From sequence record KF620435: a stretch of 64,000 nucleotides of DNA; one strand, written 5' to 3'. The position numbers were made by a program, and so were the translations under genes. Below, in pieces: positions 1 through 59,185 of this stretch (position 1 is the stretch's first letter; every line of letters starts with the position of its first letter). The notes beneath the pieces are model-generated. The model saw nothing but the letters and a program-made list of their open reading frames with translations. It had not been told where the DNA came from and ran no database searches. This DNA comes from Shigella phage pSb-1.

Positions 1-1402
1 GCATAACATCATTCAGTCGAGCTATCATCCACCCTTTCTCAGAACCTTTAAAAGCATCCTTAAGAAGACGGTCTGCTACTTCACCAATGGTAGAATTGTC
101 ACGTAATGCACGAGCATAGTTAGCAGTAATAGTTCCAGTATTGTCTTCAGACTGACGTGCAGCAACTGTATTGCCTGCCATGTTTGAGACTACTTGCTGG
201 GTCTGCAATTGATCAATAGGTGAACCTACTTCTGCCTGTGCAATTAACTGACGTGCTTCACTCCAAGGCATATCCTTATAGCCACCAACACCCAAGTCAG
301 GCAATGCAGCCCAAGTCTTAGAAAGGTTACCACTCTTACGGTCATTAAAGATTGCTTCAGCTATTTTGTCCTGTACTTCAGGGGTCATTTGCTGATTACG
401 CCAATCTGAACCAAGTACTTTAGGAGCATAGTCTTCCAGGGTAGCTTTATTAATCTGGAATGCACCTACAGGGGAGTGACCTTGTGATGGATTATTAATC
501 ATAGTTTGTTGATGATTAGTAACCTCACCCAGTGTCATCTCAGTAATAGGCTTATCAGTAGCAGCAAAGGTATAGGTTGCATCATAAGGAGAACCAGAAC
601 GAGTACCAGCAGTACCTGGAGCAGAGCCAGAAGGAGACGTGGCATAAGTACCTGGGAATCTCTCGTTCACACCTCGCATAATCGCAGCACGTACACCTGG
701 GGAAGCATTCTGCATAGCAGACTCTGCAAGTGTAAGAGCATCCATAGGAGTAGAAGCACTACGGAAAATATCCGTCAGTATACCGGATGCAGCTTGTGAA
801 TCAGCATCATTGCGTTGACGTACACTAAGGTCAAAGCGATTAGTTGCCTGATTAATAGCTGCACCACCCTGTCCTTGCAGGCGACCTAACAATTCTAACT
901 GTTGGTCAGCAGGGAGCGTAGACAGTGCCTCTCGGGTTTGTCCCAATGCAGTATTAATACGGTTCTGGTCACCAGACTGATAAGCCTCAGACAGCAAACG
1001 AATAGCTGGGGATGCATTATCTAATGCGGAGTTAACATCCTTTAAGCGACCAAAGTTATAAGCATTGTAGTCATTGGTTCCTTGCTGACCTTGTTGAGTC
1101 AGAAGAGTACCTGCTCGTTCATCCAGATTCTGGAGAGTACGCTGACTTACCAATGAAGGGTCAACCCCCTGAAACAGTGCACCAGATGCCAAAGCATTAC
1201 GATACTCAGTAGGGTCTTGGTACTGCATAGCATTCATCATGACGGCATTGCCAGCCTCCTGCTTGGCAGCGTTCTGGAAATTACCCAGTGCATCACTTAA
1301 GCCGGAGGTGGCGTTACCAATCATGCTTCCAAATGTGCGAATGCTGTCACCAACTCCAGAGAAGTTAGGTGCATCAACATTACGCCATGTAATTTGAGCC
1401 AT
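1..1402 (-). CDS. virion structural/internal protein, N-terminal ~467 codons only (gene runs off the window start); possible lytic-transglycosylase-like stretch (GAFQINKATLEDY)
   Basis: ATG at 1402 (minus) with AGGAAA RBS 6 nt upstream; frame open by eye to position 1; sits in the late block. Confidence 0.4.
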   Translation of the reverse strand, partial: MAQITWRNVDAPNFSGVGDSIRTFGSMIGNATSGLSDALGNFQNAAKQEAGNAVMMNAMQYQDPTEYRNALASGALFQGVDPSLVSQRTLQNLDERAGTLLTQQGQQGTNDYNAYNFGRLKDVNSALDNASPAIRLLSEAYQSGDQNRINTALGQTREALSTLPADQQLELLGRLQGQGGAAINQATNRFDLSVRQRNDADSQAASGILTDIFRSASTPMDALTLAESAMQNASPGVRAAIMRGVNERFPGTYATSPSGSAPGTAGTRSGSPYDATYTFAATDKPITEMTLGEVTNHQQTMINNPSQGHSPVGAFQINKATLEDYAPKVLGSDWRNQQMTPEVQDKIAEAIFNDRKSGNLSKTWAALPDLGVGGYKDMPWSEARQLIAQAEVGSPIDQLQTQQVVSNMAGNTVAARQSEDNTGTITANYARALRDNSTIGEVADRLLKDAFKGSEKGWMIARLNDVM

Positions 1403-1414
1403 GATGGTTTCCTA

Positions 1415-1857
1415 TTAACGAGTTAGCTTATTAGCTGCAATGTAAGCATCAGCAGTAGACTGGTCACGGTTTTCTGCAACAGCACGACTACGAGCACGGT
1501 CTTCCAGTGCAGTGTTATAAGACTTAATCTGGTTGTTCAGGTTAGTGTTAGTAACACTCTTAGTAAAGTTCAACTGGTCTTTGGCTAACTTATTGGCTTG
1601 GAAACCACTGTAGATATTAGCTAATGAACCAAGTGCACCCAGTCCTAGTTGGAAGGTGGGTACGTTCATGCCCAACTGATTAGCTGAACCAGACAGGAAA
1701 GAAGTAGGGTAGATACCCCCAAATTCGTACCCATACCAATAGCTGCACCAGGGTTATAGTTCATAGCCGGGGTATTAAAGTTCTGATTGTTATTAGACAT
1801 CCAAGACATAGCAGCTGGCTGTGGGGTTTGGTTGCCTGTTAAGAATGACAAATCCAT
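1415..1857 (-). CDS. small virion protein, frameshifted (track fragments 1666..1878 and 1415..1675)
   Basis: ATG at 1857 with AGGAG RBS; the two fragments read as one protein if one C is restored in the C-run near 1716..1720. Confidence 0.35.
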
Positions 1858-1870
1858 GGGGATTCTCCTG

Positions 1871-2695
1871 TTAAACAAGGTCAGTATTAAGGGACATGTC
1901 AGAGTAGTTACCTATCATATCTAAAGACAGGTCAGCTATATCTGAGCCAGTCATGAGAGTACGTGATAAGAATGAATCCAGTGACTCCATTGACACGAAT
2001 TGCATTGGGTCAATTACACCCTGCCCAGCAGTACCAAACATTTCTTCATACTGCTTATTGATTGCCATCATATCAGTATTGTACTGCTGCATTACTCTCT
2101 CTGCTTTCTGAATAGTAGCAGCCGTAGATGCATTAATATACTGGCTAATACCATTACCTACCGAACTGGTAAGCTGCATGATGTTTTGGGCATTCATCAT
2201 TTCACTCGCTAAGGTAGACAGAGATGTACCAGTAGACAAAGCAGTACCAACATTCATAGCTACCATTGAAGCAATAGCAGCAATGATAAAGCCCAGCTTG
2301 TCCCCGAACAGTGACGTAGATACTTTAGTGATAATGGATACCAGAATCATTCCAGCAATGGCATTTGCTACAGCACCAACAATCACGGCAGCTAATCCAA
2401 CAAAACCCAGAGATGCACCAACTGCACCATATGCCCCAAGTATACCTGCACCACCAGCACCAGCTGTAAATACAGAGATAACTACAGCAACCACAACAAC
2501 AACAATCTTAAATGCCCCGGTCTGATACCATTTCTTCTTAACCTTCTTATATGAGTTCATCACTAAGTAGGAACAAGCAGTGGATAGCTGAGTACTTCGA
2601 ACCAGTGACATGGAACGGTAGATGTTAGTGTGCAGTGGAATAATGAATCCACTCTCCTCTGCATCACCCATTGCCCCGGCAACATCAATGTGCAC
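1871..2695 (-). CDS. Gly/Ala-rich multi-pass membrane protein (virion/ejection protein candidate); true start may be ATG at 2560
   Basis: Long hydrophobic runs (KIVVVVVAVVISVF, GILGAYGAVGASLGFVGLAAVIVGAV); track start is GTG; overlaps upstream ORF by 132 nt. Confidence 0.4.
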   Translation of the reverse strand: MHIDVAGAMGDAEESGFIIPLHTNIYRSMSLVRSTQLSTACSYLVMNSYKKVKKKWYQTGAFKIVVVVVAVVISVFTAGAGGAGILGAYGAVGASLGFVGLAAVIVGAVANAIAGMILVSIITKVSTSLFGDKLGFIIAAIASMVAMNVGTALSTGTSLSTLASEMMNAQNIMQLTSSVGNGISQYINASTAATIQKAERVMQQYNTDMMAINKQYEEMFGTAGQGVIDPMQFVSMESLDSFLSRTLMTGSDIADLSLDMIGNYSDMSLNTDLV

Positions 2696-4524
2696 TGACT
2701 TATTCTTATATACCTGTTATAGTGATTTAGACCCAGTACTCTGAGTTTACGGTAAGTGTTATTACCATCCTGCCAAAGTAACTCATACTCCTGCATTGAA
2801 TAGAATGTATATGTTACCTCAAGTTTCTTAGCAGAACCGGAGTTAGAAGCTGTCCTAATATTCTTACGGGTAAGGGTTATATCTCCTGCATACCTGGCTC
2901 GTAGTTGCCCCTGCTTAGCACCAGACCATGCTTGTCCTGAGTGAGTAGTTTCAAATACATAGTTCCAGCCAATAGTCATGTCATACTTGTACCGCTTATT
3001 ACTATGTATCCTAAACTCTCGCTTAGGTATAACAGGATATTCCGGTAGTGGTGGAGGAGTTCCAATAGTATGCCCTTCAGTCCTGTTCCACCATGCTACA
3101 TATTCATCAACTGCATCATTAGCTGCCTGATAACCTGCAATTACTGCTTCTAAAGTCGGGTAGGTTGGGTCAGGTGGAAATGCTTCAGTAGCCATCTGAA
3201 AGAAACGGTAAATGTATTCCTTAGCAGTATCTTCAGGAGAATTAAGAGATACACCGAATGTGCCATAAATGTACTGAATATCACCTATGTCATTATTCTT
3301 CTTAAGCTCTGTCACTACTTTATCAATTTTTCCACCAGTAGCTTTATAAAGAGCTTTCTTACAGTGTGGGTAGATTGGGTCATTTTCTACCCATTGTTTA
3401 TCATTCCTGATTGGAATGAATGGATAGAATCGGTTATCAGTAGCCTCGGTATCAAACAGTGAATCTAGTGCAACGTTACCAGAGTTCTGCTTATAGATAA
3501 GCATCTTAGGTGTACCAACAGCAGTCATCTCTGTATCAGTACGAGTAGTCTGGGATGAGTACTTACGAACCAGTGTCTCTGTGGTTGTAGTGATTGTATC
3601 AGTACGAGTAACACCGCCACCTATATCAACTACATTGGTAGTTACAGTAGTACTGGATTGGATCTCACCAAACTTTCTGTGGGTCATTACCCTGTCAGAT
3701 ACAACTACAGTTACATCATCAGGTTTCTCAGTGAATCCTCTACGATAAACCTTAACGTAGGAATTCCAGTTATCTACACTTGGTTCAGTGACGGTACTAT
3801 CCTCATCAGGTCTACCGTCAGAGTAAACAGAATGAGTATGTATAGTCTTAGTAAGGTTAGTTGTGTTAGCTGTTGTATCACTTGATACGGTAGTCCATAA
3901 CAAAGTGGAGGGTAAGTCATCCTCATCATCATAGACTGTAGTCGGTCCTACTACTGGTGGATTGGTAGAGGGAGATTTATAGAAAGAGTAATCAGCATAG
4001 AGATACAAAGCACCCGGTTCAAAGTTAGTAGGTGTGAATGTAATAGTAGAACCACCATCTAAAGAGGTCATAGTAATTTCATTGGTATCTTCATCAATGT
4101 CTATGTCGAATCGTTCCATGATTCGACTTGGGGCATTCTCATAAAGATACTGGTCACACCATTGTTCAAAATCAGCAAAGCCTATCTCTGCTGCCTGAAC
4201 ATAGACAGACTCTCCAGCAGGTGGTGTAATTTGGCCCTCTATAACAGTAGGGTCAATCTTAGCCAGTACACCTAATGAAGAACCAGCCATACCAACTTCC
4301 GAATCATAGTGGTTCTTACTCCAGCTGGAGAACAGTCGCATACGAATACCCGGCCCATTCAGATAACTATCAGAGATAGTGTCTGCCATAGTGAATCCTG
4401 TATTGGAAATAATGTTACCAATGACTACAGTCTTCATATAGTTAGGACGTTTGTGTATATCCCCTGCCATGTTATAGACAGAGGATGCTACGTATACTTT
4501 GGTCTTCCCACTGAATAAACCCAT
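2563..4524 (-). CDS. virion structural protein (653 aa)
   Basis: Long ORF in the late block; last ~45 residues are Cys/Trp-rich and may be out of frame. Confidence 0.45.
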   Translation of the reverse strand: MGLFSGKTKVYVASSVYNMAGDIHKRPNYMKTVVIGNIISNTGFTMADTISDSYLNGPGIRMRLFSSWSKNHYDSEVGMAGSSLGVLAKIDPTVIEGQITPPAGESVYVQAAEIGFADFEQWCDQYLYENAPSRIMERFDIDIDEDTNEITMTSLDGGSTITFTPTNFEPGALYLYADYSFYKSPSTNPPVVGPTTVYDDEDDLPSTLLWTTVSSDTTANTTNLTKTIHTHSVYSDGRPDEDSTVTEPSVDNWNSYVKVYRRGFTEKPDDVTVVVSDRVMTHRKFGEIQSSTTVTTNVVDIGGGVTRTDTITTTTETLVRKYSSQTTRTDTEMTAVGTPKMLIYKQNSGNVALDSLFDTEATDNRFYPFIPIRNDKQWVENDPIYPHCKKALYKATGGKIDKVVTELKKNNDIGDIQYIYGTFGVSLNSPEDTAKEYIYRFFQMATEAFPPDPTYPTLEAVIAGYQAANDAVDEYVAWWNRTEGHTIGTPPPLPEYPVIPKREFRIHSNKRYKYDMTIGWNYVFETTHSGQAWSGAKQGQLRARYAGDITLTRKNIRTASNSGSAKKLEVTYTFYSMQEYELLWQDGNNTYRKLRVLGLNHYNRYIRISQCTLMLPGQWVMQRRVDSLFHCTLTSTVPCHWFEVLSYPLLVPT

Positions 4525-33379: not shown

Positions 33380-33709
33380 ATGAAAACTTTACTTAAAGGT
33401 ATTGCAGTAGCTGCACTGATAGCTTTGGTTCCAAATGCACAAGCAATTGAACCAGAACCTATTCTGGAAGGTGCTCAGGCTTATCTGGATGACACCAGGG
33501 ATGCGTTCGGACAAGGATTCTTCATGGGCAGTATGATCTCTTACATCGAGAGCACAAATAACTGTGTTCCCGAAGGTATTAAGTATTCAGTCATTCCGCC
33601 TAAAATTGCCAAAGTAGTTATTTATGATTCTGCAATCCTCAAATTGAAGAATACATCTCAAATTGTTGTGTACTCAGTACACAAGGCATACCCCTGCACT
33701 AAATCTTAA
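33380..33709 (+). CDS. secreted/periplasmic protein candidate (109 aa)
   Basis: Signal-peptide-like N-terminus MKTLLKGIAVAALIALVPNAQA. Confidence 0.35.
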   Translation: MKTLLKGIAVAALIALVPNAQAIEPEPILEGAQAYLDDTRDAFGQGFFMGSMISYIESTNNCVPEGIKYSVIPPKIAKVVIYDSAILKLKNTSQIVVYSVHKAYPCTKS

Positions 33710-33743
33710 TTAGCAATTCCATTAGCTTTAGGAGAGTAAGTAA

Positions 33744-33947
33744 ATGGCAAGCATTGACTCCTTGACCGTATGTAATTCACGTCAAGCTCGTAACTTTATT
33801 ATCCGTGCCCTAAAAGCAGGCAACGTACCGTTCCTGACTTCATCACCCGGCATGGGTAAATCTGCAATCATTCGTTCTATTGCAGAAGAATTTGGCATGA
33901 AGCTGATAGACCACCGTCTATCTACTTCTGCCCCGGAAGACCTTAAC
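33744..33947 (+). CDS. MoxR-like AAA ATPase, exon 1 (Walker A)
   Basis: SSPGMGKS P-loop; frame ends at TAA 33948..33950 just after EDLN, where MoxR-type proteins continue. Confidence 0.6.
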
Positions 33948-34816
33948 TAATAGGGCTTTGTGGGGGTGACCTCACATCGAAAGCTATCTAAATGGGGAAA
34001 CTCCTACTATTACAGGGAAACCATGATACACTCTGGTTTCCCAATAGAGGACAATCCCATGCTAAATATTAATGAAAGTTGGAAAGACATTGTTGGTTAT
34101 GAAGGTTACTATGAAGTCTCTACGCATGGTCGCGTTAGAAATACCCGTACAGGTATGATAAAGAACCAATGTGTACAGACTAGCGGTAAGTATCTACAAG
34201 TCAGTTTGTGGAAAGGCAACAAAGAAAAAAGATGTTTAATACATCGCTTAGTTGCTATAGCCTTCATTCCTAACCCTGAAGACAAGCCTCAAGTAAACCA
34301 TTTAGACAAAAATGATAAGAACAACCATGTTCAAAATTTGGAATGGGTAACCATATCCGAGAATCATTTACATGCATTTGCTAATGGTAGAAAAGGCTCC
34401 AAATCCCGACTAGGTGAAAAAACTAGTAAAGCCTCTCAGTACCGATATGTGTACTGGGATACCAAAAGAGCTGTTTGGAAAGCATCTATAAAGATAGATG
34501 GCAAAACAGTAAACATTGGTAGATTCAATACTGACCTAGAGGCAGCTTTAGCCGCTGATGAGGCAATTGATTCCTGGGGCTGGGATAGAATTAAAAACTT
34601 TCAATAATTAAATGCCTAACGACTATCGAAAACACGTAGTGATACGGAAGTGAGTAGAGTAGGGTGCAAGCCAATGGCACTCGAAAAGATAGCCACCCGG
34701 ACAGGTAAAGCTGAGGGTGTTGATATAGTCTGGTCTGCGTAGTAATACGTAGCTGTATATGTCCAACTCGCATATACGGGTAGAGCCTTGCAAACTCTAC
34801 TGAACATAACGTAGTG
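33948..34816 (+). mobile_element. group I intron (IA2-like) with HNH homing endonuclease ORF; boundaries within a few nt
   Basis: Splits the ATPase gene between Walker A and Walker B; second exon has no start codon; GACTAT (34619..34624) pairs with ATAGTC in GATATAGTCTGG (~34746..34757), as in P7 of T4 td-type introns. Confidence 0.6.
34059..34607 (+). CDS. intron-encoded HNH homing endonuclease (NUMOD4 + HNH + AP2-like)
   Basis: WKDIVGYEGYYEVSTHGRVRN; HRLVAIAF...NHLDKNDKNNHVQNLEWVTISEN; C-terminal YRYVYWDTKRAVWKASIKIDGKTVNIGRF; AGAGGA RBS before ATG 34059. Confidence 0.7.
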   Translation: MLNINESWKDIVGYEGYYEVSTHGRVRNTRTGMIKNQCVQTSGKYLQVSLWKGNKEKRCLIHRLVAIAFIPNPEDKPQVNHLDKNDKNNHVQNLEWVTISENHLHAFANGRKGSKSRLGEKTSKASQYRYVYWDTKRAVWKASIKIDGKTVNIGRFNTDLEAALAADEAIDSWGWDRIKNFQ

Positions 34817-35664
34817 GTCTGCCATTCCGTAATGGTGACCGTGCAGAGTTTATTCCATTCGCTGACTTATTCCCTATTGAAGGGGATGAAGTACCAGAAG
34901 GATATAACGGGTGGCTCCTGTTCCTTGATGAGTTCCCATCCGCTCGTAAAGAAGTAATAGCTGCTGCATACAAACTAATTCTAGACCGTATGACAGGTCA
35001 GAAAAAACTTCATCCTAATGTGATGATTGTCTGTGCTGGTAACAAAGCTACTGACCGTGCCATTGTTAACCCGCTAGGCACTGCAATGCAGTCTCGTGTG
35101 GTCCATTTTGAAATGGAACTTAACTTCGACATCTTTGTTGAAGACGTAATGATTCCTCAACAATGGGATGAACGTCTGGTTGCATTCTTACATGCTAACC
35201 CTGGTTATCTGCATGACTTCGACCCGGCCCATAAGAACAAAACATTCTGTTGTCCTCGTACTTGGGACTTTGTTAATAAAGACCTCAAGAACCAGCCAGA
35301 AGGTGCTCTTCCTGATGAAGATTCCATCTACTATGCAGGTCACGTTACTGCTGGTAAGGCTACAGAATTTGTTCAGTTCACTCAGGTATATAATCGTATC
35401 ATTACGATTGAAAAGGTAGTCAAAGACCCACTGGGCTGTGCACTACCGGAAGATAACAACCTGTGCTGGGCTACCGTTAACCATCTGGCTAACAAAACTA
35501 CTGAAGAGAACTTTGTTGATGTTCTTCAGTACATTGAACGCTTTAAAACGTTCACCCATAAGATTCTGTACTTCCGTACAGTAGGCAATGCATTACCAGA
35601 TCTTCAGGCTACTCCTGAATGGCGTAAGGCTGCTGCTAATATCTCTCGTTACATTCACGGATAA
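34816..35664 (+). CDS. MoxR-like AAA ATPase, exon 2 (Walker B onward)
   Basis: In-frame continuation GLPFRNGDRAEF...GWLLFLDEF (Walker B) with no initiation codon until far downstream. Confidence 0.6.
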   Translation, partial: GLPFRNGDRAEFIPFADLFPIEGDEVPEGYNGWLLFLDEFPSARKEVIAAAYKLILDRMTGQKKLHPNVMIVCAGNKATDRAIVNPLGTAMQSRVVHFEMELNFDIFVEDVMIPQQWDERLVAFLHANPGYLHDFDPAHKNKTFCCPRTWDFVNKDLKNQPEGALPDEDSIYYAGHVTAGKATEFVQFTQVYNRIITIEKVVKDPLGCALPEDNNLCWATVNHLANKTTEENFVDVLQYIERFKTFTHKILYFRTVGNALPDLQATPEWRKAAANISRYIHG

Positions 35665-35671
35665 TCACAAC

Positions 35672-36845
35672 ATGAACCAATTTCCTCAGCACACACTTAG
35701 TGATGAACAACTCATGCGTGAGTACGACCGTATTCAGGCTAAGGCGTTTCTTGGACGCAGTGCAGCGTTCTTTGGTTCATTACTGTGTAGTCTTAAGTTC
35801 TCATGGAATCGTGAGAATTGTCCCACTGCATGTACTGATGGGATAGAACTCCATTTCAACCCAGACTTCTTTATCTGGATGTGTCCAGATGCAAGAGAAA
35901 CAGTGTTAATGCACGAACTCTGGCATGTGGCATATCTACATGACATCCGTCGTGGAAGCCGTGACCCAGAAGTCTGGAACCAGGCATGTGACCACTTCAT
36001 TAACCTTCAGTTAGAAGAAGATGGTTACAAGTTCACTGGCATTGATAAAGGCATTTGCAAAGACCCTCAATATAAAGGATGGGTCGAAGAAGACATCTAC
36101 GATGACCTGATGAAGAACCTCAGAAAAGGCAGAAGCCGTCTGGGGGTGCTGGAGCTGGTCTTGCTGGCGACATGAAATCCCCACTTCGGGGCAGTCCCAG
36201 GGTGCTGTTGTCAACAACGTAGTACGTGCAATGCAGAGCCAGAAGATGGCTGGTGGACAGATGCCCGGTAAAGGTGCTGGTCGTATGGAAGAGGTTATTA
36301 CCCAATTCCTTAAACCAGTGGTTCCATGGCAGGAAGTTCTGATGAACTTCTTTACCGACATTGATGACACTCACTATACGTGGGCCAGGCCTAACCGTCG
36401 TTACACTGACATTTATCTACCTTCCCTGGAAGATGATGAAGGACGCTTACGACACTTAGCTTATTTTGAGGATGTATCTGGTTCTATTAGTAGTGCTGAT
36501 TCTCTGCGTTTTAACTCAGAGGTTGCCTATGTTAAGAGCCAGTTCAATCCTAAGAAGATGTCCCTAATTACCTTCGACGATGTTATCCAGGAAGAGATAG
36601 ACATCACTGAAGAAGATACTTTTGAAGAGATTAAGATTACAGGTCGTGGTGGTACAAGCCTTGTGCCTGTACGAGATTGGATTATTAAGAATAAGCCAAC
36701 CGCTGCAATCATATTCTCCGATATGTATGTTCGTCCAATGGAAGAATTGCCATTTGATATCCCCATCATCTGGTGTGTTCTGAATAATCCCAATGCTACC
36801 GTACCTTTTGGGGAGGTAGTTCATATCCCTAAAGGAATGAAATAA
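35672..36845 (+). CDS. metallopeptidase (HExxH) - von Willebrand A domain protein, frameshifted twice (~36142..36146 and ~36178..36182)
   Basis: HELWHVAYLH zinc-binding motif; C-terminal vWA-like region; three frames link through a G-run and a C-run in a Gly-rich linker. Confidence 0.5.
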
Positions 36846-58291: not shown

Positions 58292-58450
58292 AGGCTTCAG
58301 ATCCCTTATCAACTAACGCTCATGTTGAGCACAACATTAACTAATAATGTCGGATAGTTCATTACGCTATTCATTCAGCATCGAGATGTTAGGTCTTACA
58401 TGTAATATAGGGTATAAAGGGAGGATTCGTCCCCTCCTCCTATTATAATG

Positions 58451-58520
58451 GTCGGGGTAGCACGTAGGCATGTGCAGCTGGTCGCTACTTCTCTCGCTGG
58501 TTCGAATCCAGCCCCTGACC
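58451..58520 (+). tRNA. tRNA-like element 1; anticodon arm not foldable by eye
   Basis: 7-bp acceptor GTCGGGG/CCCTGAC, D-arm GCAC-GTAGGCAT-GTGC, T-arm GCTGG-TTCGAAT-CCAGC; only 20 nt between D and T arms with no 5-bp stem. Confidence 0.35.
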
Positions 58521-58789
58521 TACTGACATCCTATCAATGAGTACATTAGGCTAACGTGCGGAGGTTTACACTGTAGCCGGTGTAGGTAGAGAAGACGGCA
58601 GGGTAGCTACCTGTGCTTAGTGTACTCTTTGATAGGTTGTACTATCAAAGTCCAGACGATATCTGAGTGACTATAAAAACAGATGGAGCCAGGTGGAATC
58701 CCTGGCAATTAATTCAAAGTAGCATTGCACTAATCCATCTCGGAATTCAAAGGCCAACCATGGAGCAGTGCTACTTTGAATTAGAAGAA

Positions 58790-58905
58790 TTATGACGGGT
58801 CTGGTGAAGTAGATGGGGTTCGATTCCCTCCGGTGGATAAAACCACTAGCGTGCTTGGTGCACGAATAAGACTTAATACTGGTGGTTCGATTCCATCCCC
58901 CGTTA
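58790..58905 (+). ncRNA. tRNA-like region with two T-arm motifs; boundaries unresolved
   Basis: GGGG-TTCGATT-CCCT at ~58815..58829 and GGTGG-TTCGATT-CCATC at 58881..58897; 13-bp inverted repeat just upstream (58711..58781). Confidence 0.25.
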
Positions 58906-59100
58906 TCCGAAGTCGCCAGGTACTTATGGCAAACGGGTAGTAACGAACTAGTCATTCGTCAAACGCCCACCCAATTATGAGTCAGCAAGAACGCCTTCAC
59001 TTAAACTTAAACAAAAAAGCTTAACGCAATAATTATGTAGGGGTATGTAAGGATTGCGAAGAAGGAGCCAGTTAAAGCCTGGCATGACTCACCTATTTAT

Positions 59101-59185
59101 GCCCACTTAGCTCAATGGTAGAGCGCAGGAAAGCTTCGAGAGAACAAGGTGTCTGTGGTCACTGGTTCGAATCCAGTAGTGGGTA
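59101..59185 (+). tRNA. tRNA-like element 3 (type II length); anticodon arm not foldable by eye
   Basis: Acceptor GCCCACT/AGTGGGT, D-arm GCTC-AATGGTA-GAGC, T-arm ACTGG-TTCGAAT-CCAGT; 35-nt middle with no canonical 5-bp stem. Confidence 0.4.

Follow-up and report, generated by a model that had tools for sequence, protein, structure and literature searches.

A group I intron with its own homing endonuclease gene in the AAA ATPase gene of Shigella phage pSb-1

We examined a 64,000-nucleotide (nt) stretch of the genome of Shigella phage pSb-1 (sequence record KF620435), referred to here as the window, in which an AAA ATPase gene (33744..35664) is divided by an insertion. The insertion is very probably a real, intact and apparently active group I intron that carries a homing endonuclease gene. 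It occupies 33944..34811 (868 nt; this and all other exon, helix and endonuclease coordinates below are on the + strand) and separates exon 1 (33744..33943; 200 nt), which encodes the Walker A motif, from exon 2 (34812..35664; 853 nt), which encodes the Walker B motif. This reading rests on exact boundaries whose joining restores the open reading frame (ORF) of the uninterrupted homologues, on an RNA architecture supported by covariation and on a population pattern of recent lateral spread.

Exact boundaries and the restored ATPase gene

The ATPase frame opens at ATG 33744, runs through Walker A (SSPGMGKS) to APEDLN and ends with the stop codon TAA 33948..33950. From 34816, a different frame takes the protein up again as GLPFRNGDRAEF...LLFLDEF, where LLFLDEF is Walker B. 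Exon 1 and its read-through into the intron make up a 68-amino-acid (aa) ORF (33744..33947), with a sequence identical to that of psb1_0062 in Shigella phage pSb-1. A preliminary description of this DNA, made from the letters alone, had reported both the interruption and a resumption near 34816 without a start codon, and both hold on re-reading. In the window sequence, ATG, GTG and TTG are absent from the exon-2 frame between the stop at 34807..34809 and ATG 34990, and the frame has no ribosome-binding site. Because the first available start at 34990 lies beyond Walker B, that motif could not be translated from a separate start.

We set the boundaries by base-by-base comparison with the uninterrupted ATPase gene of phage HK2, a single coding sequence (CDS) of 1053 nt. 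Nucleotides 1-200 of the HK2 gene correspond to 33744..33943 and the remainder continues up to 35664; exon 1 is 97% identical to HK2 nt 1-200 and exon 2 is 94% identical to HK2 nt 211-1053. The insertion begins UAACUAAUAGGG, ends ...GAACAUAACG and is the exact excess over the intron-less homologues. Only one division satisfies both the HK2 protein (DL-SGLPF) and the rules for group I introns, namely U33943 / 33944..34811 / U34812 (slashes mark splice sites), which leaves a U at position -1 of the 5' splice site and closes the intron with a G, the omega-G, at 34811. The predicted spliced join reads ...GAC CU/U AGU GGU CUG..., in letters ...GAAGACCU/UAGUGGUCUG, and encodes DL-SGLPF; the intron-less HK2 allele has ...GAAGACCTGTCTGGCTTACC... 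at the insertion site. Removal of the intron in silico gives a 1053-nt ORF of 350 aa, equal in length to the HK2 gene. The splice sites, previously given as uncertain by a few nucleotides, are thereby exact, and the gap that had been estimated at ~865 nt exists but measures 868 nt.

The undivided form is the usual one. Matches to 33700..35700 occur in 56 phage records, which with one exception come from Escherichia coli or Shigella Gamaleyavirus at 90-95% identity, and a 24-kb stretch is ~91% identical to the nearest genomes. The window belongs to Gamaleyavirus, a genus of the N4-like family Schitoviridae. The exon parts are contiguous (~1,130 nt) in ~30 of the 56 matches; the remaining matches mostly cover exon 2 only, and PBM-3, which we examined, is uninterrupted. 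The gene is likewise uninterrupted in 10 of 10 IMG/VR loci found by a protein scan, and the corresponding protein cluster has 685 members, with a length of 350 aa in 13 of the 15 listed. The alignment to uninterrupted homologues suggested earlier as a check thus finds single 350-aa ORFs, not parts that are naturally separate. The domain models agree: PF00004 (generic AAA) reaches its gathering score on the spliced protein alone (24.4 versus 21.2), matching residues 31-146 across the junction, whereas exon 1 alone scores 18.8, below 21.2, and exon 2 alone gives no match. This AAA+ ATPase gene of Gamaleyavirus is orthologous to N4 gp24, and once the intron is recognized, its product is again a 350-aa core protein conserved in N4-like phages. 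The arrangement is not due to chance, because excision restores a 350-aa ORF of homologue length and because the group I helices covary.

The ATPase had also been called MoxR-type. The generic AAA assignment stands, but MoxR-specific models do not recognize the protein: bpMoxR (PF20030) gives 15.6 bits against a cut-off of 27, only PF00004 passes its gathering score, and NCBIfam returns nothing for the ATPase or for the endonuclease. The best match in the PDB, to midasin, is weak (E = 0.018). In the intact form seen in HK2, the gene that follows the ATPase encodes a DUF2201_N (metallopeptidase) domain and a DUF2201 VWA-like domain, and a VWA-like protein is the usual partner of MoxR-like ATPases. 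'MoxR-like by context' would therefore be a fair but weakly supported description, one of setting and not of membership in a modelled family.

Ribozyme fold and encoded endonuclease

We drew the structure on the window and counted it on a MAFFT alignment of 11 introns from which the ORF loops had been removed (the window, PW8, U1G, two from NAN33P5, JA29 td, D9 nrdB, SL2, ME3, KIL1 and an rV5-like phage). Overall, 84.1% of cells are paired, compared with 36.7-40.9% when partners are shifted by 1-3 columns, and 53 pairs are changed on both sides, compared with 14-23 in the shifted controls; none of 500 shuffles reached the observed values. Independently of any alignment, the minimum-free-energy (MFE) fold of 33936..34062 produces P1, P2, P4, P5 and P5a as drawn (z = -4.83), and none of 200 shuffles folds as well. 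P2, P7.1, P7.2, P8 and P9 are 97-100% paired and consist mostly of compensatory pairs.

At the 5' end, the P1 hairpin (33941..33955) pairs CCUUA at 33941-45 with UAGGG at 33951-55, is reproduced by the MFE fold and places U33943 in a U.G wobble at the 5' splice site. This wobble is kept in 11 of 11 introns, while the neighbouring pair covaries with the exon context as GC, CG, AU or GU. The guide ACUA in the P1 loop (33946-49) pairs with UAGU at the start of exon 2 (34812-15) to form a P10 of 4 base pairs (bp). The P2 hairpin (33960..33975; GUGGGG-GUGA-CCUCAC) is closed by a GNRA tetraloop, is 98.5% paired and has compensatory changes in 6 of 6 pairs; G33960-C33975 becomes A-U in contigs L027 and L032, and G33963.U becomes A-U in PW8. 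The 5' strand of P3 (GCUAUCU, 33983..33989) pairs with AGAUAGC at 34687-34693 in a pseudoknot with P7, with changes on both sides in 5 of 7 pairs. The P4-P5-P5a domain (33992..34060), whose helices are exactly those of the MFE fold of 33936..34062, comprises P4 (AUGGGG 33992-97 with UCCCAU 34055-60; 88% paired, 4 of 6 pairs compensatory), P5 (UCCUACUAUU 34002-11 with AAUAGAGGA 34043-51) and an extra 9-bp P5a (GGGAAACCA 34015-23 with UGGUUUCCC 34034-42).

The endonuclease gene is built into the next helices. The 5' strand of P6 (GC, 34061-62), a UAAAU loop and the 5' strand of P6a (AUUAAUGAAAGU, 34068-79) together span 34061..34079 and contain the first endonuclease codons; the 3' strand of P6a (ACUUUCAAUAAU, 34597-608), a second UAAAU and the 3' strand of P6 (GC, 34614-15) span 34597..34615 and contain the last codons and the stop. 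P6a has 11 of 12 positions paired between 34068-79 and 34597-34608, and because it is made of the first and last codons of the ORF, the endonuclease ORF is looped out of P6a. The order GC, UAAAU, stem, UAAAU, GC is common to the ORF-less introns of SL2 and ME3, and P6 covaries, GC/GC becoming AC/GU in the site-C intron of NAN33P5.

In the 3' half, the guanosine-binding helix P7 pairs GACUAU at 34621..34626 with AUAGUC at 34725-34730; it is invariant, 100% paired in 11 of 11 introns, and its motif is matched by the Rfam group I intron model RF00028. The preliminary description had picked out both strands but misplaced them, GACTAT at 34619..34624 and ATAGTC within GATATAGTCTGG at ~34746..34757; GATATAGTCTGG lies at 34722..34733 and ATAGTC at 34725..34730. 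The extra helices P7.1 and P7.2 (34635..34682) are a mark of subgroup IA: pairing is 97% in P7.1 (34635-46; CGUA-GUGA-UACG), where all 4 pairs are compensatory, and 98% in P7.2 (GGGUGC 34662-67 with GCACUC 34677-82), where 4 of 6 are. The stretch 34687..34730 holds the 3' strand of P3, P8, J8/7 and the 3' strand of P7, the last within GAUAUAGUCU (34722-31), and is covered by the RF00028 alignment; P8 (CACCC 34694-98 with GGGUG 34715-19) is 100% paired, with 4 of 5 pairs compensatory. P9 (34735-52; CUGCGUA-GUAA-UACGUAG) has a GUAA loop and is 97% paired. P9.1 (34753-61 with 34771-79) is recovered by the MFE fold and P9.2 (34780-85 with 34795-800) belongs to the drawn structure. The 3' tail UGAACAUAACG ends at the omega-G 34811.

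The closest well-characterized counterpart is the td intron of T4, which encodes I-TevI. Both introns have P1-P10 with P7.1 and P7.2, a P2 closed by GUGA and a P6a from which the endonuclease ORF loops out. At the sequence level, they agree over the 19 nt TAAATGCCTAACGACTATC, have GATATAGTCTG in common and resemble each other from J8/7 through P7' to P9. Their 3' tails have the form CTGAACATAA(C/T)G, so that CTGAACATAACG of pSb-1 differs from CTGAACATAATG of td by one base. They differ in host gene (thymidylate synthase in T4, AAA ATPase here) and in endonuclease (the GIY-YIG enzyme I-TevI versus an I-HmuI-like HNH enzyme), and the pSb-1 intron has the extra P5a, longer P9.1 and P9.2 and an ORF that starts inside the P4/P6 core rather than in a loop. 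The earlier proposal of a T4 td-like IA2 group I intron is thus borne out by the U/...G/ boundaries, the P1-P10 fold with P7.1 and P7.2, the covariation and the direct similarity to td; we assign the subgroup from P7.1 and P7.2, the ORF in P6a and the resemblance to T4 td and nrdB rather than from a formal classifier. The T4 introns of nrdB and sunY are of the IA2 type as well. From the boundaries, the restored ORF and the fold, we infer that the intron is self-splicing.

The endonuclease ORF (34059..34607) encodes an I-HmuI-like protein of 182 aa in which a NUMOD4 domain is followed by an HNH (beta-beta-alpha-metal) motif and a C-terminal AP2-type domain. NUMOD4 (PF07463; 50.6 bits, cut-off 23.4) and HNH_3 (PF13392; 31.9 bits, cut-off 24.8) are well above their thresholds, as expected from the HNH/NUMOD4/AP2 reading made earlier, whereas AP2 (PF00847) falls just short of its gathering score at residues 128-169 (30.0 bits versus 33.3, E = 6.5e-7); the C-terminal domain is probably a true but divergent AP2-like domain. 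PHROG families of HNH endonucleases also match the protein. I-HmuI, from the DNA polymerase intron of Bacillus phage SPO1 (PDB 1u3e), matches residues 7-110 (E = 9e-17), and the alignment brings together the H and N of the HNH motif in the two proteins (VNHLDKNDKNNHVQNLEW and VDHKDGNKDNNLSTNLRW). Both enzymes combine a NUMOD4-type N-terminal sheet with an HNH motif and reside in phage group I introns; they part at the C terminus, which is AP2-like in the pSb-1 enzyme, and the alignment stops at residue 104 of the 174 in the I-HmuI chain. I-HmuI nicks one strand of its target. The pSb-1 protein is 98.9% identical to that of PW8 and 43% identical to an enzyme at the homologous site in Vibrio phage phi 1; outside the same intron, its nearest relative is <55% identical.

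The start of this gene (34047..34061) coincides with ribozyme helices: the 3' strand of P5 contains the Shine–Dalgarno sequence GAGGA (34047-51), and AUG 34059-61 reaches from the 3' strand of P4 into the first base of P6. Judging from this helix map, the folded ribozyme probably limits translation of the endonuclease by hiding its start. In the U1G intron the arrangement is the same and the start codon is GUG. We rejected GTG 33960 as an alternative upstream start (giving a 215-aa ORF), as the extension has no homology and the alignment to I-HmuI begins at residue 7 counted from AUG 34059.

Spread among related phages and alternative readings

Of the 56 phage-database matches, one, PW8, carries this intron. 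An exact-protein look-up placed the identical exon-1 ORF on at least 11 assembled contigs, which come from unrelated samples, and in every case the 182-aa HNH gene comes next. When exact patterns of the intron were scanned for, Vibrio phage phi 1 was the sole match in IMG/VR, and the JGI metagenomes gave none.

We compared eight intron-bearing genomes, one of which (contig L030) stops 14 nt into the 3' core, before exon 2. The 3' ribozyme core is identical at 204/204 positions in the seven genomes that include it, the 5' core is 94.8-100% identical and the endonuclease gene 98.2-99.6%, whereas exon 1 is 94.5-96.5% and exon 2 90-94% identical. Among substitutions in the core, 5 of 6 keep the pairing, including the double change in P2 described above. 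An element so much less diverged than the exons that surround it fits recent lateral spread by homing, and the intron is apparently still spreading between related phages.

The junction carries a signature of the intron. All seven intron-bearing alleles that include exon 2 begin it with UAGU (Leu CUU, Ser AGU). None of eight intron-less alleles in the same comparison has UAGU; all eight have NUCU (Ser UCU), as do the 11 intron-less alleles of another comparison. The protein around the junction is the same with either sequence. By inference from these sequences, the UCU-to-AGU change would probably also destroy the target of the endonuclease.

The same gene hosts other introns. A second site lies after nt 314, within a Leu codon of Walker B (LLFL/DEF), in U1G and NAN33P5, and a third lies after nt 648, in NAN33P5 and contig L031; NAN33P5 and L031 thus carry two introns in the ATPase gene at once. 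These sister introns (2318..3199 of the extracted U1G locus; 1359..2240 and 2575..3439 of the extracted NAN33P5 locus) are also of IA2 type and each encodes its own I-HmuI-like endonuclease in P6a. They are 78% identical to the pSb-1 intron over the 3' core and share its P7.1/P7.2 motif; they differ in insertion site, their endonucleases are 35-37% identical to the pSb-1 enzyme, and their guides match their own exon contexts. The U/...G/ rule is obeyed at all three sites. Boundaries taken from BLAST had suggested an intron ending in C at the LLFL/DEF site of U1G and NAN33P5; we rejected them, the true boundaries being CCU/UAAC...AAUG/CGAUGAG, which are canonical and give CUC as the spliced Leu codon.

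A more distant counterpart occurs in Vibrio phage phi 1 (Pacinivirus), itself a distant N4-like phage, where an orthologous ATPase gene is interrupted in the homologous codon (EDPTTI/NGFP; in both, L or I before [S/N]-G-[L/F]-P). This intron (719..~1600 of the extracted locus) also starts with UAAC, has an identical P9 (CUGCGUAGUAAUACGUAG) and encodes a NUMOD4-HNH-AP2 endonuclease, the 43%-identical enzyme noted above. Its 5' half is arranged differently: the ORF appears to sit elsewhere in the fold, and P4' and P6 could not be placed. HNH genes that split the homologues of gp24, DNA polymerase and gp43 in Vibrio phages JA1 and VchO139-I have been described as ones that 'may be carried on an intron' (Fouts et al. 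2013; PMC3670811). The same study states that in coliphage G7C none of the HNH genes interrupts another gene (PMC3670811), so the ATPase intron was not known in Gamaleyaviruses. The N4-like Vibrio phage pVa5 has a published group I intron in its td gene (PMC5746245), and our literature searches found no paper on a group I intron in the ATPase genes of Schitoviridae or Gamaleyavirus.

Several observations weigh against an intact and active intron. In a whole-window scan, RF00028 finds nothing at its gathering score of 50 bits; a local scan gives 26.8 bits (E = 1.6e-4) at 34463..34752 and 11.2 bits at 33938..34206, both below 50. The MFE fold of the 3' half recovers P9 and P9.1 and replaces P7.2 and P9.2 with a long-range alternative (z = -2.13); as thermodynamic folding recovers the helices of this half only in part, we relied on covariation instead. 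The sequences in the family alignment were in turn chosen by us and the structure was derived from the window, which inflates the percentage of paired cells and affects the compensatory counts and shifted controls less. P10 is only 4 bp long and is weak or absent in some relatives (50% paired). Finally, two single-base deletions in the gene after the ATPase mean that the window sequence may contain errors.

The low covariance score can be traced to the endonuclease gene, because the 517-nt ORF loop forces a wrong alignment of the 5' half. The local alignment puts P3', P8, J8/7-P7' and P9 correctly, and the true 5' half lies in the 11.2-bit match. ORF-containing introns score below 50 bits, among them the experimentally proven T4 introns in a local E-value scan (td, 40.3 bits, again because of its ORF; nrdB, 35.7 bits), and ORF-less introns linked by BLAST (in the terminase genes of an rV5-like phage and KIL1, in the DNA polymerase gene of ME3, and in SL2) score 69-96 bits. 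The default Rfam annotation, applied at the gathering score, therefore systematically overlooks phage IA2 introns that contain an ORF. The absence of any covariance match, which the preliminary description had named as evidence against an intron, is therefore not what we find: pSb-1 has a sub-threshold match, as td and nrdB do. Whole-window Rfam scans at gathering and E-value thresholds gave no intron signal other than that at 33944..34811.

Other explanations of the locus can be weighed against these data. A group I intron that has decayed and no longer splices, leaving the ATPase as a pseudogene or a dispensable gene, would agree with a score below the RF00028 gathering threshold and with the neighbouring DUF2201 gene, whose two frameshifts point to some decay or sequence error in this genome. 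We consider such decay very unlikely, because all core helices are intact, the invariant motifs J6/7-P7 and J8/7-P7' are the same as in functional relatives, and no part of the locus is better conserved in the eight genomes than the ribozyme, which has a 100% identical 3' core and substitutions that keep the pairing; moreover, the exons are open, the protein is unchanged at the junction and proven T4 introns score similarly low. Less probable again is the insertion of a free-standing HNH gene that split the ATPase into two separately translated polypeptides that reassemble, with no splicing at all. Some T4-like phage genes are split by a free-standing endonuclease gene, and this is in effect how annotators have seen the locus, PW8 being entered as two 'ATPase' CDSs and one HNH CDS and PHROGs holding a 68-residue family of exon-1 fragments (phrog_21479). 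It leaves unexplained an exon-2 frame that lacks ATG, GTG and TTG before 34990, beyond Walker B, and that has no ribosome-binding site; it also offers no reason why the non-coding flanks of the ORF (115 + 204 nt) form a complete group I core, or why U/...G/ boundaries restore the reading frame to the nucleotide.

Removal at the protein level, as an intein or another in-frame insertion, is the least credible of these readings, with a likelihood close to nil. N4-like phages do have inteins, one of them in the JA1 terminase (PMC3670811), but the exon-1 frame meets TAA 33948..33950 after one read-through codon, with TAG directly next, and these in-frame stop codons exclude an intein. A Pfam scan found no intein domains, and the RNA structure favours an intron.

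If the group I intron acts as its structure predicts, the ATPase gene would be transcribed as a single pre-mRNA, in which the guide sequence would pair both with the end of exon 1 (P1, with U33943.G) and with the four bases that open exon 2 (P10, ACUA with UAGU). A guanosine bound in P7 would attack after U33943, and exon 1 would then attack after the omega-G at 34811, producing ligated exons (...GAC CU/U AGU GGU...) and an mRNA for the 350-aa ATPase. The folded ribozyme would limit translation of the HNH gene, with its Shine–Dalgarno sequence buried in P5 and its AUG in P4/P6. In a mixed infection, the endonuclease is expected to nick or cut intron-less ATPase alleles near ...GACCUN/UCUGG..., and repair from the intron-bearing genome would copy in the intron together with a few flanking bases.

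The gp210 intron of jumbo phage PhiPA3 lies in an RNA polymerase gene. Its endonuclease was demonstrated experimentally to act in competition between co-infecting phages (Birkholz et al. 2024; PMC11620839); phage family and host gene differ from those considered here. By analogy, it is conceivable, if rather unlikely, that the Gamaleyavirus ATPase gene is a battleground, in which three related IA2 introns with endonucleases occupy three codons of a 1-kb gene and sweep through phages that are 5-10% diverged. The endonucleases would then be weapons that cut the essential ATPase gene of co-infecting intron-less relatives, and the UCU-to-AGU switch would serve both as P10 partner and as immunity mutation.

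Annotation, neighbouring features and significance

Public records obscure the divided gene. In those of PW8 and pSb-1, the ATPase is entered as two CDSs named 'ATPase' or 'hypothetical' together with an HNH gene. In the PW8 record (2619..3464 of the extracted locus), exon 2 is assigned an artefactual TTG start; the window reads CTG at this place (34819). The 68-residue PHROGs family phrog_21479, listed as of 'unknown function', consists of exon-1 fragments of the ATPase.

The DUF2201 gene downstream (35672..36845) has single-base deletions in C-runs near 36121/36122 and 36182/36183, 61 nt apart, so that its frame shifts twice. It encodes 391 aa in HK2, PW8 and the metagenomic contigs L026, L028 and L029, and U1G annotates it as two overlapping CDSs; the deletions in the window are either homopolymer sequencing errors or a real disruption. 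Elsewhere in the window, Rfam reports a tRNA at 59101..59185 (54 bits) with 24 nt in the anticodon arm compared with 11 in the model, and a weak tRNA-like match at 58450..58520; several T-arm-like GGTTCGA(A/T)TCC motifs lie between the two. ARAGORN finds no tRNA in the 64-kb window. Unusual or degenerate tRNA-like genes may be clustered at 58450..59185.

The intron was previously unannotated in public records, and it is an ordinary mobile element of a well-understood type that changes no concept. Its practical value is chiefly in annotation: one split ATPase gene replaces two CDSs and an HNH gene, and RF00028 at its gathering score is seen to miss phage IA2 introns that contain an ORF, T4 td and nrdB included. 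For the biology of these phages, it represents a young and apparently still-homing intron in coliphages that are therapeutic candidates, and with three sites in one gene and a clean junction signature, it is a convenient natural setting in which to study homing and co-conversion in podophages.

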